Assembly: GCA_030704615.1 (NCBI GenBank)
Contig: CM060734.1
Location: forward strand, 24,924,001-24,988,000
Source: Takakia lepidozioides
Lineage: Eukaryota > Plantae > Bryophyta
DNA: 64,000 nucleotides
Direction: 5' to 3'
Below, piece after piece: positions 33,900 to 38,292 of this stretch. A model generated the notes under the pieces. It ran no database searches, was not told the origin of the DNA, and saw nothing but the letters and a program-made list of their open reading frames with translations. The position numbers and the translations under genes are program-made. Within the stretch, counting starts at the first letter, position 1. Every line of letters starts with the position of its first letter.

Positions 33900-34880
33900 A
33901 GTATCCGGATGAAGGCATTTGCCTTCTGGACTTGTTTGGCGGGATCAGCACCGGATTGGCTGCTGTGTTACAGGCAGGTGTACGAGTTTGGCGTTACCTG
34001 TATGTGGAGAGGGATGAGACTACTCGACGCGTCTCACTGCGCCATGTTGCTCAGTTGGTGCAGCAGTACCCTGAGTTGTTGTCGGTGTCTGCAGTTCGTG
34101 GATATCAGCAGCCTTGCCAGCAGACATTTCGTTGTTGGGGGCGCAGGATTTGGAGCGGGTTGGCTCCATTGATCTGGTAGTGGCAGGTTGGCCCTGCCAA
34201 GGGCATTCATCAGCCGGGCATGGCAATGGATTGCGAGACTCGAGGACGGGTCTGTTTTGGGAGATGGTGCGGGTTTTGCGCCACTTGCAGCTTCATCAAG
34301 CTGTATCTCCAGCATACATCTTGGAGAATGTGCCACTGATGGGCGATTCTCGGGCCAGGGTGATGGCCAGTGTGCATCAAGTCCGGTCGTGGCTTGGGTC
34401 AGCAGTGTTGCTGGATGCAGCTACAGTGGGGTCACGGGCTCATCGTCCACGGCTATGGTGGACTAACTTGATGCCACTCGCACTGCTCAAGCGTGCATTT
34501 GATGGGGTGCAGCGGCCAGCACACCTCACCGTGGATGGCATTTTGGACACAGGGAGGCAGTCTCAACGTGTGAGACACGATGACCGTTCGCCTTTGGCAG
34601 TGGTCAACAGGGTGGGTCAACCACGAGCAGCATTACCTACACTGCTCAGCTTCCCAGGATCCCATGCTTTTCGGGATGGTGGACCTGGCCTCCTGTGGGA
34701 TGCTCAGTTGCAACAATTAGTGGAGCCTAATGCCGACGAGCGAGAGCGGGCTATGGGGTTTTCCACTGGGACCACGGCGGTGCCTTCTCTTTCTGAGGCA
34801 TCACGTCGTCAGGTGTTGGGGCAAGCAATGGATCTCAATTGCTTGACCTGGATTATCAGCTTGGCTATGGCTGAGCAATG
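33900..34880 (+). CDS. pol: C5-cytosine DNA methyltransferase domain (DNMT3/DRM-like), one frameshift at about 34113
   Basis: Motifs I DLFGGIS, IV AGWPCQG, VI LENV, VIII HRPRLWWTN, IX ERERAMGF and X RRQVLGQAM, in canonical order. Confidence 0.93.
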
Positions 34881-35299
34881 TAGAGTGCGGAGCGCACTTC
34901 CCTGGACGGTCTCTCTACCTACCGAGACGGTACAGGCAGCGAGTGGGGGCGAGCCGGTGAGGACCACGGGGTGTAGACATCCATGGCACACGTGGGAGGT
35001 GCTCGAGGTTCAGAGGGAGTTGGCAGCCAAGCAGCTGTGATGGATGAGGTTGGGATTCTTCTCAGGATGAGGAGGTTCTCAATGATGAGATGATGGGGTA
35101 GGATGAGGCATTGTCATTGACTGAGCAGGAAGGAAGTACTGCTCAAGAGGTTGCAGCATAGCAACCACGGGACGCGTCCCCTACCTCTAAGCCCACTGGA
35201 CTTAAGGTTGCAGTCACGGAGGACAATTGGGAGCCTGACATTGGACCCATTGTCACCGGAGGAGAGAGACGACGTATACGGCGGTTCCTGAGGGCTTAA

Positions 35300-36660
35300 A
35301 GGAATTGCTTTGCCTTCAGTTTGAAGGACTTGGGAGCACTGAAGGGTCAAGAGATCCGTATTGAGTTGGCCACTGACACGCCAATCTTTCGGAGACCCTA
35401 TAGATACAGTGACATGGAGAGGTCTTTGATTCAGATGAGGACTCAAGATCTCTGGGAGGCAGGTTCTGGTGGAGCTCTCTGGTGGAGAGTATGCTTCAGC
35501 CACAGTGATGCCAGCTAAGAAGGATGTCTATGGCAATTGGACGGAGAGACGTATGTGCGGTGATTACCGGCCTGTAAATCGTCAGACCAAGTCCGATAGG
35601 TATGCCATGCCAACACCAGAGGAGATCTTTGATGCCATTGGGCATTCCAAGGTCTTTAGCACGTTGGATTTACGATCCGGATATCACCAGTTGCCGATCA
35701 AGGAGGCGGATAAGCAAAAGACGGCATTCTGGGGGATCAATGAGCACGGGAAGGATTGCCTATACCAGTGGCGGTTCTTACCATTTGGGCTTAAAAACGC
35801 TCCCGCTGAGTTTCAAAGAGTCATGGACAGGATTCTAGCAGGGGTGGAGTTTGCTCGGTGCTACATAGATGACATCATCATCTTTAGTGCTACGGTGGAG
35901 GAGCATGAGAGACACCTTCAGGGGTATTTGAGCGCTTAAGGACGCACGGATTGAAGTTACATCCGGGAAAGTGCAAGTTTTTCCACAACCAGATTGAGTA
36001 TCTGGGTCACATGATATATCCTGGAGGATTGGGGGTACAGCAGACTAAGGTAGAGTCCATTGCACAGGTTCCACGCCCCACGGATGTGAGCCAAGTTCAA
36101 GCTTTCATGGGGTTAGCAAACTATTACAGACGGTTTGTTAAGGGATTCAGTGCCATTGCAAAGGCTCTAACCAAGCTGACCAAGGTAGACCAGGAGTGGC
36201 AGTGGGAAGATGAGCAAGAACAAGCTTTTCAAGAGCTCAAGGCGAGGTTGACCTCGGCGCCCATCTTGAGATGACCTATCAGGGGGCGTCCTTTTCAGCT
36301 GCATATAGATTGGAACATGCTGGGGCTTGGAGCGGTGCTCACACAGGTGGATAATGAGGGAAGAGAGTTCGTAGTGGCTTATGCTAGCCGCTCGAACAAT
36401 GCTGCAGAGTCTAAGTATAGCTCATATGAGGGAGAATGCTTAGCTGCAGTGTGGGCCGTGGCACACTTCAGGTGCTCTATACGGCAATCTCTTCACCCTT
36501 GTCACGGATCACCAACCACTCAAGTGGTTGATGGAGTCAGACAAGCTTACGGGGAAGCTTGCACGGTGGGCACTCATCCTTCAAGAGTATGACTTTCAGG
36601 TGGTGCATCGACCGGGTTTGGTCAATCGCAATGCAGATGGGTTGAGTCGCAATCCATGCA
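35300..36660 (+). CDS. pol: reverse transcriptase and RNase H (disrupted)
   Basis: [34 protein letters not shown] at about 35862, [29 protein letters not shown]. Confidence 0.95.
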
Positions 36661-36788
36661 CGAGCCAACAGGATGACACTGGAGCTCGGTGGCATGGTGA
36701 GACGGACGAGGAGATGGTGCCCGGATGGCATGCATCTGCATTTCTGTGTATCTTGGCAGCGGAAGGCTAGGTTGGACCTGCAACAGGG

Positions 36789-38100
36789 ATGACTGTAGAT
36801 CAAGTGTCTGAGGACCCTGAGGCCAGCAATGAGCAAGGTAGTGCCAAAGATATACATGAGGATTCAGTTGTGTTGGACTACCTCCGCACTGGAGACACGG
36901 CAGCCACTGTGACTGCCAAGGAGAGGGATCGGATCCTACAACGAGCCAAGAGGTTCAGGTGGGAGGGGACACACCTGCTCCGAGTGTGGGAGGATGGTCG
37001 AGTGAGGATTGTGCCTCACCCAACACAGCGGGCACGGTTAGTGCGCCATGCCCATGAGGAGTTGGGGCATTTTGGGGTGCGACGCACTCATAGTCTACTG
37101 CAGGGGCAGTATTGGTGGTGTGGTATGCACACAGAGGTGCAACAATTTGTGGCTAGGTGCATGGTGTGTGACAGGGTGCGTGCTTCATTCAACGCCCCTA
37201 CTCCACAATTGCACCCTCTTCCGATCATGGGATTGGGCTACAGGTGGAGTCTTGACTTCGCAGGGCCGTTGCCACTGACCATGCGCCACAACAAGTACGT
37301 GTTGGTGATGGTGGAGCACTTCTCCAAGTGGATTGAATTGGTTCCATTGCCTGATAAGGCTAGTGAGGGAGCTGCGTATGCATTCCTAGATTGTGTGCTT
37401 AGCCGATTCGGTGCTCCAGCTGAGGTACTCACGGACCAAGGGAGAGAGTTCTTGGGGGAGTTTCAGGCTTTGTGTGACAAGGCCTTGATAGACCACCGCA
37501 CCACTTCTCGGGATCATCCTGAGGCCGATGGCTTGGCAGAGAGAGTTGTTCAGACAGTAAAGAGGGGTTTGCGCAAGTATGGCTTGCAGAAGGGACACCT
37601 AGGAGATTGGACCTTCAGTTACCCTGGTTAGCCATGGGCTACAGGTTCAGCAAGCAAGCATCACTTGCCTCCTTCTCACCATACTTTCTTCTCTTTGGCC
37701 GAGAGCCGGATTTGCCTACATCCATTCGTAGAGAAGCTGCTACAGTTCTTAACCTTGACGATCCGGACGTGTGGGCACGTGCATGTGAGCAGCGTGCAGA
37801 GTTGTTCAAGAGAGTCATGCCCATGGCTTTCGAGAACCTTGCCATTGCACAACACCGTGATACGTTGAGGTATGCTACCATACGTGGTGGGGGCTATCGT
37901 CTTGGGGTTGGAGATTCAACCCTGGTGACTATGTCTATCTGCAGCAGACTGCTCCTACGACCCTGGATGTGACTGTAGGACGTGTTATTTTGAGGGTTCG
38001 AGAGGTCTTGCCCTCAGGCGTCTTGGTCTTGGAGGGTCGGGATGGCATAACTTGAAAGGACCATGTGCGTAATTGTGCGCCATGTCACCTTCCGAATGTC
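36789..38100 (+). CDS. pol: DDE integrase
   Basis: HEELGHFG...CMVC (HHCC), WSLDFAGP, VLTDQGREF, DGLAERVVQ. Confidence 0.95.
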
Positions 38101-38145
38101 GATGGTAGGATCGACCCAAACCTGGCAGTGGTATCTGCAGGTTTG

Positions 38146-38292
38146 AGGTGCATGTTGTGTGGGTCTGCTAAAGGGGCAGCCACCATGCTGGTGTGTGATC
38201 GATGCTCTAGAGGTTGGCATATGGGATGCTTGACTCCACCTCTTGAGATGGTTCCAGATGGGGATTGGTTATGTCCACATTGCATTGGATAG
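38146..38292 (+). CDS. pol: C-terminal PHD finger
   Basis: CMLC...MLVCDRCSRGWHMGCLTPPL..VPDGDWLCPHC (C4HC3). Confidence 0.93.
   Translation, partial: RCMLCGSAKGAATMLVCDRCSRGWHMGCLTPPLEMVPDGDWLCPHCIG

Follow-up and report, generated by a model that had tools for sequence, protein, structure and literature searches.

We analyzed a 64,000-nucleotide stretch of the genome of the bryophyte Takakia lepidozioides (GenBank assembly GCA_030704615.1, contig CM060734.1, positions 24,924,001 to 24,988,000 of the forward strand), called here the window. By translation and Pfam, it carries on its plus strand a retrotransposon with the order gag, protease (PR), DNMT3-type C5 cytosine methyltransferase (DNMT), reverse transcriptase (RT), RNase H (RH), integrase (IN), and PHD finger. 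The element belongs, as a dead copy, to a bryophyte Ty3/Gypsy-type family of the KnitGypsy-Dnmt3 kind. We put at about even the chance of the full explanation favored here, in which a DNMT made at capsid-level dose methylates the element's new cDNA and the PHD finger tethers insertion to nucleosomes without H3K4 methylation. For Klebsormidium, both the PR-DNMT-RT design and split repeats have been published; what is new is the land-plant range, which includes a model organism, the apparent recoding at a stop codon, and the anatomy of the ends, which suggests a permuted long terminal repeat (LTR). We found no published account of bryophyte elements, of the leaky stop, or of an internal integrase attachment (att) site, a provisional result in that Repbase Reports and most subscription journals lie outside the coverage of the search. 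The coding features, in window coordinates, are the following.

31188 to 32912, plus strand: gag, a weak PF03732 match (Pfam) with two zinc-knuckle-like motifs, broken by frameshifts
33116 to 33600, plus strand: aspartic protease, with LLDSG at 33197 (translation)
33900 to 34890, plus strand: DNMT3-type C5 cytosine methyltransferase domain (Pfam, translation, and the model of a relative)
35159 to 35167, plus strand: in-frame amber stop followed by CAA CCA, closing Gag-PR-DNMT; matches the tobacco mosaic virus (TMV)-type CARYYA context
35168 to 36700, plus strand: reverse transcriptase (YIDD) and RNase H, broken (Pfam)
36855 to 38148, plus strand: integrase with H2C2 zinc finger, rve core, and C-terminal part, broken (Pfam)
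38149 to 38292, plus strand: C4HC3 PHD finger at the integrase C terminus, followed by a stop (Pfam, relatives)

The methyltransferase domain and the stop codon behind it

A Pfam check on PF00145 and PF00628, proposed in a preliminary description of this DNA, matched both the DNMT (E = 7.6e-13, over 34075 to 35037) and the PHD finger (E = 8e-12). DNMT motif I (DLFGGISTG, 33917 to 33961) lies in a single frame, with a frame break near 34110; the Cys codon of motif IV (WPCQG) is at 34195 to 34197, motif VI (ENV) starts at 34324, the two Arg codons of motif VIII (HRPR) are at 34444 and 34450, and motif X (LGQAM) starts at 34816. The motif order I-IV-VI-VIII-X is unpermuted, and PC, ENV, and RxR are all intact in the translation. 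An unbroken relative (P0001), 74% identical to the window DNMT, matched DNMT3A (E = 6e-12) ahead of DNMT3B, DRM, and bacterial enzymes. Its predicted model (predicted local distance difference test [pLDDT] score, 92.8) had DNMT3A/B as the best Foldseek match and aligned with them at Z 29 and a root-mean-square deviation of 2.5 to 2.6 Å over 273 residues, versus Z 25.5 for M.MpeI-type enzymes and Z 24 for M.HhaI (VIA-align). Identity with the circularly permuted DRM enzymes is ruled out by the canonical motif order and by the relative's match to Arabidopsis DRM2 (E = 2e-4), weaker than that to DNMT3A.

A query with the DNMT stretch 34117 to 34899 matched 292 proteins close to it in length, of which the best 120 were listed, and another 92 that were longer. 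Among the matches listed, records from Calypogeia fissa, Marchantia polymorpha, M. paleacea, Riccia sorocarpa, and Sphagnum were 70 to 75% identical, in agreement with the original assignment to a land-plant element. Together with PPR genes in the window, these nearest relatives indicate a land-plant host, most likely a bryophyte. A library of 50% clusters gave 200 clusters at E <1e-30 to the DNMT, and the named ones, among 30 looked up, included Klebsormidium nitens, Closterium, Spirogloea, Cymbomonas, Scenedesmus, and Marchantia. Klebsormidium nitens GAQ93235.1, which we infer from its Gag-PR-DNMT layout to be a KnitGypsy copy, was 44% identical to the window DNMT (E = 6e-43). Viral contigs gave only six weak C5-methyltransferase matches (E = 3e-7 to 3e-6), and a search with the algal protein P0204 gave four matches, none of them a named Klebsormidium record. 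The best 80 of 265 metagenome stretches were retained as loci (numbered with L): the DNMT was followed by RT within 1.2 kb in 57 of them and a PHD finger followed the integrase in 21, while 4 extended beyond the integrase without a PHD match. The DNMT-RT order thus recurs across loci, so the domain is a family part; its absence from other copies, which the preliminary description had said would undo its proposal, is not what was found.

Catalytic residues, whose lack in the consensus would likewise have told against that proposal, were counted in 230 full domains out of 367 profile hits; the catalytic Cys and the Glu were each kept in 226, one Arg in 223, and the other in 224, and the Pro before the catalytic Cys was replaced by Glu in 85. 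Among the relatives, P0001 has an unbroken DNMT domain, and locus L043 has a single stop, TAG CAG TTA, in 2410 codons. The ratio dN/dS for the DNMT was 0.07 to 0.17 in five of eight pairs, all between families; two pairs were not estimable, and several dS values were above 1, hence rough. A ratio of 0.87 in one pair of decaying same-family copies speaks the other way. On the sequence evidence, the DNMT is an old, fixed part of the family under purifying selection.

We also built a FastTree tree of 125 rows, comprising 119 of the 230 full domains after thinning, the window, and five loci, with a midpoint root and neither host DNMTs nor an outgroup. It grouped the window with Calypogeia, Sphagnum, and Marchantia in a clade of 11 rows (support, 100), united the elements with the order RT-RH-DNMT-IN-PHD in an 80-row clade that includes chlorophyte records (support, 95), and left Klebsormidium on a long basal branch, in a comparison of element rows only, with no host DNMT3 or DRM. 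That order was seen in P0189, P0223, P0245, P0248, and others of the chlorophyte-type clade. A diverged (∼40%) DNMT-Gypsy clade from the same metagenomes (L062, L064, L067, L071, L073, and L076 to L080) shares the palindrome described below and has no stop between DNMT and RT. The 131 related proteins of at least 700 amino acids are referred to as long relatives; 51 of them have the DNMT and the PHD finger together. In 21 of the 131 there is an additional C-terminal methyltransferase-like domain with DPWAG and SPW motifs and no Pfam match. If these motifs are read as those of an adenine methyltransferase, such proteins would resemble EpiLTRs in design, but with the DNMT being of DNMT3 type and the reader a PHD finger.

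The DNMT had been described as lying between PR and RT, in line with both, with PC, ENV, and RxR. Its position and motifs stand, but it does not share one open frame with RT, since a TAG that looks programmed interrupts the frame at 35159 to 35161. This TAG CAA CCA, in the frame leading into RT, fits the UAG-CARYYA consensus, the signal by which TMV achieves readthrough (PMC2754532, PMC2194720; here and below, statements from the literature refer to the available parts of each source). The pattern TAR-YAR-YYN occurred at the homologous position between DNMT and RT in 45 of the 57 loci, 43 times in the RT frame, against a background of CARYY after TAR of 178/21489 (0.8%). Thirty-eight of the 45, with TAG or TAA followed by CAA CCC, CAA CCA, or CAA CTC-like variants of the Sphagnum type, do not count as independent cases; four other families have CAA CCA or CTA, CAG TTA, CAA TCA, and a decayed TAG CCA, respectively. 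Variation in the stop context is confined to degenerate positions (CAA/CAG; CC, CT, TT, TC), and 35 of the 131 long relatives terminate immediately after the DNMT. No RNA structure was found 3′ of the stop (fold z, −0.47).

From this conservation, it is very probable that the stop after the DNMT is read through to make RT-RH-IN-PHD. Retroelements need ∼20 Gag per Pol (PMC2194720), and a stop conserved with a readthrough context would make Gag-PR-DNMT the abundant product and RT-RH-IN-PHD the rare one. Some observations weigh against a general need for this arrangement. The stop is missing from 12 of the 57 loci (10 loci of the diverged clade, one deletion, and one rearranged locus), and in Closterium and other algal relatives a single frame extends from DNMT into RT, which suggests that a high DNMT dose is not needed everywhere. 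In addition, the Sphagnum-type context CAA CCC is one base off the consensus.

The remaining Pfam matches, to RVT_1 (E = 2.9e-22), RT_RNaseH (3e-18), Integrase_H2C2 (1.5e-15), and rve (1.7e-14), complete the Gag-PR-RT-RH-IN set with a DDE integrase that is expected of Ty3/Gypsy elements. The gag match (E = 4.5e-4) is under the curated cutoff, and gag is 46% identical to the N terminus of Marchantia Mp4g09160. No Pfam match was obtained for the protease in the window, where LLDSG was taken from the translation; Asp_protease_2 matches relatives at the equivalent position. The stops and frameshifts reported earlier for this copy were confirmed: compared with contigs of four runs (best-supported rows only), it has small indels near 31851, 32021, 32913, 34110, 35030, 35466, 35920, 36475, and 37608, and in-frame stops occur, for example, at 36272, 36768, and 38053. 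Since many of the indels fall within runs of G, assembly errors may account for some, and decay by itself could account for this number of them. Summed contig depth over the element was 2.5e5 to 1.3e6, versus 370 to 890 at the neighboring 27468 to 29403 (run X1), a contrast that shows a highly repeated family, although the depth figure is no copy number.

Split terminal repeats, probable self-priming, and the internal palindrome

The element has the layout A1-internal-B1-GC-A2-B2, that is, split repeats of the form A-internal-B-A-B, with GTTC at both flanks.

2949 to 2952, plus strand: left copy of the target site duplication (TSD), GTTC, inside the gag of a minus-strand sister copy (sister gag continuity)
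2953 to 3301, plus strand: repeat A1, element 5′ end, starts TGTCA; 5/349 mismatches to A2; predicted self-primer at ∼3103 to 3119
3302 to 29440, no strand: ∼26 kb of nested unrelated DNA in the leader, not part of the element; boundaries approximate
38542 to 38548, plus strand: polypurine tract (PPT) AGGGGGG, directly 5′ of B1; same tract before B1 in 4/4 related B-A-B copies examined
38550 to 38637, plus strand: repeat B1, 88 bp, ends CACGACA; identical to B2
38631 to 38644, no strand: near-palindromic B1-GC-A2 junction with GACAGCTGTC core, conserved; putative integrase att site
38640 to 38995, plus strand: repeat A2, starts TGTCA; predicted self-primer at 38790 to 38806 (comparison with A1)
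38996 to 39083, plus strand: repeat B2, element 3′ end; identical to B1
39084 to 39087, plus strand: right TSD copy, GTTC (sister gag continuity)

The gag of the sister copy continues across 39084 and 2952 with a 4-bp overlap, like the unbroken gag at 32276 to 32320. It is on the basis of this TSD that we assigned A1 to the element, the last 7 nucleotides (nt) of A1 and the primer-binding site (PBS) having been removed by the nested insertion. A repeat at 26809 was ruled out as the 5′ end by its 89% identity and lack of a TSD. The sister copy itself, whose gag is the target site, is 72% identical to the element and occupies 40563 to 39084 and 2952 to 2530 on the minus strand. The near-identical terminal repeats pointed out in the preliminary description are real, but they do not form a usual pair of LTRs; 36 kb separates the 5′ repeat from the 3′ one, which is flanked by a second repeat of 88 bp. 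With A1 and A2 differing as listed and B1 and B2 not at all, the combined divergence is 1.1%, consistent with the fairly recent activity proposed from these repeats and roughly equivalent to 0.4 to 0.8 Myr at angiosperm rates, from which bryophyte rates may differ.

Of the hallmarks of Ty3/Gypsy elements, we found a TSD within the usual 4 to 5 bp, TG...CA termini, a PPT preceding the 3′ repeat, and, in sister copies, a PBS following the 5′ repeat (lost from the window copy), but the ends are A and B-A-B instead of two identical LTRs, one per end, so that the element behaves as a Ty3 element whose LTR is permuted. Membership in the DIRS/Ngaro tyrosine recombinase elements is ruled out by the rve integrase and the 4-bp TSD. 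Loci L050 and L069 are complete A-internal-B-A-B copies with a 4-bp TSD, and L026, L056, and L059 are A-internal-B copies with one; in L035 the TSD matches at 3/4 positions. In all, the window and five of six complete loci have a TSD of 4 bp.

Priming could be studied in sister copies with preserved 5′ ends.

26809 to 27181, plus strand: 5′ end of a sister copy, with repeat A (89% identical to A2) and a PBS at 27164 to 27181 complementary to 26958 to 26975
48501 to 48834, minus strand: 5′ end of a more distant sister copy, with A and a PBS carrying a compensated base change

The PBS lies directly 3′ of the A1-type repeat and is complementary to a stretch 146 to 190 nt into A. The complement is perfect over 13 to 17 nt from PBS base 1 in 5/5 cases, with four different sequences, a match reached in 0/2000 shuffles per case; the region at 26809 to 27181 folds with a z of −3.4, and 0/200 shuffles were equally stable. 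No tRNA genes were found in the window, and no tRNA-type PBS starting TGG was seen after A. Self-priming as in Tf1 is strongly indicated by these complementarities. Under standard LTR reverse transcription, the positions of the PPT and of the self-priming PBS would make B-GC-A the true LTR, so that the cDNA would have B-GC-A at both ends.

The palindrome at B1-GC-A2, present twice in the window and in eight loci, sits inside U3, ∼90 to 115 bp from the left end of the B-GC-A unit. Every insertion seen starts TGTCA and ends GACA, the two palindrome halves. In the window and in 4/4 loci, the A2-B2 joint deviates by no more than 1 nt from what a clean join between the PBS-defined end and the PPT-defined end would give. 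Seventy-eight contigs with the junction 14-mer were set aside as chance matches, since none has element domains. We think it probable, from the anatomy of the ends, that end-joined cDNA is re-cut by the integrase at the internal palindrome: linear cDNA would be joined end to end to give the A2-B2 joint, and the integrase would cut GACA-GC-TGTC after CA on each strand, leaving CA ends and 2-nt overhangs. A more tentative proposal, which we rate somewhat below even, is that in this green-lineage family normal integration proceeds via a cDNA resembling a two-LTR circle and cut at the att site inside U3, in a particle loaded with capsid-level DNMT3 so that the cDNA is premethylated; under the same proposal, a retroviral-type integrase would do what DIRS recombinases do. 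The bolder extension that strand-biased methylation near the palindrome chooses which att site is cut is unsupported.

Several observations do not favor a circle. A symmetric circle should also yield A-B-A-internal-B, but A-B-A was seen in 0/17 5′ ends (15 sites; three with contig-end cuts were dropped) and in 0/3 in the window, although short-read assembly collapse may hide such ends. The 3′ ends were B-GC-A in 5 loci and B alone in 10 (nine sites), with L009, L013, and L019 dropped as uninformative. Moreover, L026 and L055 represent the same insertion site, one with B-A-B and the other with B only, so later deletion or assembly collapse makes at least some of the short forms; A-internal-B copies were therefore dropped as proof of one-LTR-circle insertion. 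The absence of A-B-A 5′ ends (0/15 sites, 0/3 in the window) would be explained if there were no free circle and RT jumped from the right to the left end, or the B1-A2 junction bridged the ends, with the integrase cutting the left site only. This account of the ends is rather unlikely. It still requires the same internal att site and the same A-B joint, and the bridge model for split-repeat tyrosine recombinase elements uses neither a PPT nor a PBS, whereas both are conserved here.

Other observations on the noncoding parts concern sister copies and subfamilies. Positions 1 to 2138 are a chromovirus 3′ end (PF00385) inserted into B1 of the B-GC-A-B end of another sister copy (2139 to 2529). 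In the 3′ untranslated region, a motif GGCGA...GATGGGGC is kept across families (window 38398 to 38417, L008, L043, L046, and L069). The leader contains one further feature.

29704 to 30453, plus strand: extra 249-codon open reading frame (ORF) in the leader of one high-copy subfamily (high depth, bridged to gag by a run X6 contig)

This ORF had no Pfam match, was absent from the 80 related loci, gave Atlas matches of <0.9, and had a predicted fold with a pLDDT of 34. Other copies join a different leader at 30615.

The PHD finger and the proposed target of the methyltransferase

PF00628 matched over its full length (model positions 1 to 47 of 47, at 38056 to 38289), so the complete PHD finger first noticed 3′ of the integrase holds, and it closes the integrase frame in the intact relatives L043 and P0204. 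PHD fingers that read H3K4me3 have an aromatic cage with a Trp two residues before the zinc-binding His. At this position the window finger has Gly, and we found Gly in 64/66 fingers, Ala in 2/66, and Trp in 0/66; without the cage Trp, the finger does not qualify as an H3K4me3 reader. Its nearest solved relatives are CHD4, PHF12, KDM5 PHD1, ATXR5, DPF3, BHC80, BAZ2, and UHRF1, whose fingers we take to be mostly readers of unmethylated H3 tails. It is fairly likely, judging by these residues and relatives, that the PHD finger binds unmethylated H3 tails to steer insertion. On the integrase, it would probably tether insertion to nucleosomes without H3K4 methylation, with steering away from H3K4me3 promoters as its likely role. 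The window copy lies in a nest of transposable elements (TEs). As a counterpoint, many K4me0 readers rely on an acidic residue preceding the first Cys, and this finger has none there.

Closing the Gag-PR frame, the DNMT3-type domain would be made at capsid-level dose, and readthrough of the leaky stop would supply RT-RH-IN-PHD. The methylase would probably modify the element's own new cDNA, and we lean slightly toward its being active there. Some of the data do not help this proposal. The CpG observed/expected (o/e) ratio was 0.50 both in the element and in a LINE fragment and fell to 0.32 in a Gypsy fragment that has no DNMT, with the neighboring chromovirus (0.79 to 0.97) much less CpG depleted, and it was 0.55 to 0.78 in the most intact relatives. 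Differences between Sphagnum-type copies were most frequent at CHG (0.168), followed by CG (0.115) and CHH (0.043), a CHG richness that we attribute to host methylation, as it matches host CMT (PMC6453930). CpG depletion and mutation context were consequently rejected as signs of self-methylation, not being discriminating. KnitGypsy-Dnmt3 gave no de novo methylation in yeast, a result its authors call inconclusive (PMC5890265).

It is unlikely that the main substrate of the DNMT is instead host chromatin or the insertion site, reached as part of a readthrough polyprotein that stays unprocessed and in which it and the PHD finger form a true writer-reader pair. The co-occurrence of the two domains in 51/131 long relatives would suit such a pair, as would the chlorophyte-type order, in which the DNMT lies between RNase H and integrase on the PHD finger's own polypeptide, and the coupling of host DNMT3s to K4me0 reading (PMC6453930). 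In the bryophyte branch, however, the stop parts the DNMT from the PHD finger and the protease motif looks intact, so most of the DNMT would be made without the PHD finger. The preliminary description gave the element both a writer and a reader; lying on opposite sides of a leaky stop, with the protease between them in processing, the two are unlikely to form one module and would likely differ in dose and act apart.

We consider it very doubtful that the domain is kept for a job other than DNA methylation, such as binding or modification of packaged RNA or a part in particle structure. The Klebsormidium enzyme was inactive in yeast (PMC5890265), the proline of PC is exchanged for Glu as counted above, and a Gag-level dose is compatible with a structural role. 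On the other hand, the four catalytic residues are 97 to 98% conserved, fold and sequence are nearest to the DNA-methylating DNMT3A/B and far above DNMT2, and the related SymbioDIRS-Dnmt3 methylates CG (PMC5890265). That the DNMT got here by a single chance insertion or as part of a chimera, or that the repeats are a solo LTR within the 3′ LTR or an assembly error, might be suggested by a badly broken copy in a nest of insertions but is already refuted at the sequence level by the same order in 57/80 loci, four bryophyte genera, and algae and by L050 and L069, which show this repeat pattern with one TSD each; the pattern is also reported for Klebsormidium.

In the rest of the window, the nested DNA in the leader holds a LINE fragment, the 5′ end of a sister copy, a photolyase-family pseudogene, and other repeats. 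Most of it is bracketed by two copies of a 143-bp sequence with a poly(A) start, 87% identical to each other (5541 to 5683 and 29425 to 29567). The photolyase-family (PF00875) pseudogene, at 28098 to 29296, has its 5′ part inverted relative to a run X7 contig, as in twin-primed retrocopies. Apparent host genes or pseudogenes (14981 to 15487, 63562 to 63997, 62023 to 62945, and 53880 to 54404) comprise two related PPR fragments, MCM fragments, and an ORC2-like fragment, and there are tandem arrays with units of 10, ∼120, 117, and 51/10 bp at 19800 to 20059, 20450 to 21950, 42710 to 43350, and 45995 to 46997, respectively.

Relation to known elements

Why transposons carry a silencing enzyme has been an open question since 2018, partly because the known hosts are difficult to work with. 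Unbroken Gag-PR-DNMT relatives of the window element are annotated Marchantia polymorpha genes (Mp4g09160 and Mp8g17980), and since Marchantia is a genetic model with methylation mutants, the question becomes testable. The leaky stop predicts the dose of the enzyme and its place of action. How an integrase element came to have DIRS-like repeats has lacked an explanation, for which the anatomy of the ends suggests a mechanism; this anatomy also bears on whether LTR circles can be genuine integration precursors. LTR finders requiring two matching LTRs would likely miss or misdate the family, and its DNMTs can inflate DNMT counts in bryophytes.

REM1 of Chlamydomonas is a Gypsy element with a PHD finger. 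Chlamydomonas is a known source of Gypsy elements with a PHD finger (bioRxiv 2022.06.16.496473, PMC8557442), and TE-PHD fusions are known broadly (bioRxiv 2021.11.30.470311). "Streptophyte" Gypsy-DNMT3 elements are mentioned with no bryophyte named in the text available, although the trees may include one (PMC12344493, bioRxiv 2026.05.21.726589). As far as the accessible text goes, REXdb has no PHD or methyltransferase lineage (PMC6317226) and bioRxiv 363937 has no mention of DNMT-bearing Gypsy elements.

Foamy virus integrase cuts a palindromic two-LTR junction to give processed ends, as proposed here, but that palindrome is the joint of two cDNA ends and belongs to a side route, whereas the window palindrome lies inside U3 and marks the insertion ends (PMC1180852). 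EpiLTRs resemble the window element as LTR elements with a DNA methyltransferase and a histone reader; they differ in a DNMT4-related DNMT, a DAM domain, and a chromodomain, and their authors call them distinct from streptophyte Gypsy-DNMT3 (bioRxiv 2026.05.21.726589). Gypsy-7a_cRei of Chlamydomonas has a PHD finger in a Gypsy element, with a proposed steering of insertion, but in the available text no DNMT is reported and no split repeats are described (bioRxiv 2022.06.16.496473). Tf1/Tj1 and the plant Tcn1 elements share with the window family a PBS complementary to the 5′ end of their own RNA. Unlike it, they have an ordinary LTR pair, with no DNMT or PHD finger in the parts of the reports available, and Tj1 needs a stop at the end of gag, whereas the window stop comes after Gag-PR-DNMT (PMC4600332, PMC6317226). 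SymbioDIRS-Dnmt3 has the A-coding-B-A-B layout and a Dnmt3-type domain, which methylates CG in yeast (PMC5890265). It and the Ngaro/PAT-type elements use a tyrosine recombinase, in contrast to the DDE integrase, PPT, and 4-bp TSD of the window element.

KnitGypsy-Dnmt3 of Klebsormidium nitens comes closest: its polyprotein combines a Gypsy domain set with an unpermuted domain of Dnmt3 type, its repeats have the DIRS-like layout A-coding-B-A-B (legend to Fig. 4c of its report), and it is under purifying selection (PMC5890265). Its host is an alga, and DNMT and RT share an ORF according to its authors, whereas the window family belongs to land plants and has the leaky stop. The window family also has a C-terminal PHD finger; the words "PHD" and "Marchantia" are absent from the main text of the KnitGypsy paper, and its available text has no PBS, PPT, att, or TSD analysis (PMC5890265). 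The window element itself combines the unpermuted Dnmt3-type domain, the catalytic residues, the DIRS-like repeats, and homology to the K. nitens DNMT, but in place of an uninterrupted DNMT-RT ORF it has both domains in the same frame with a conserved TAG between them. This conserved TAG makes the window family a variant of the KnitGypsy-Dnmt3 kind and not a plain member of it.

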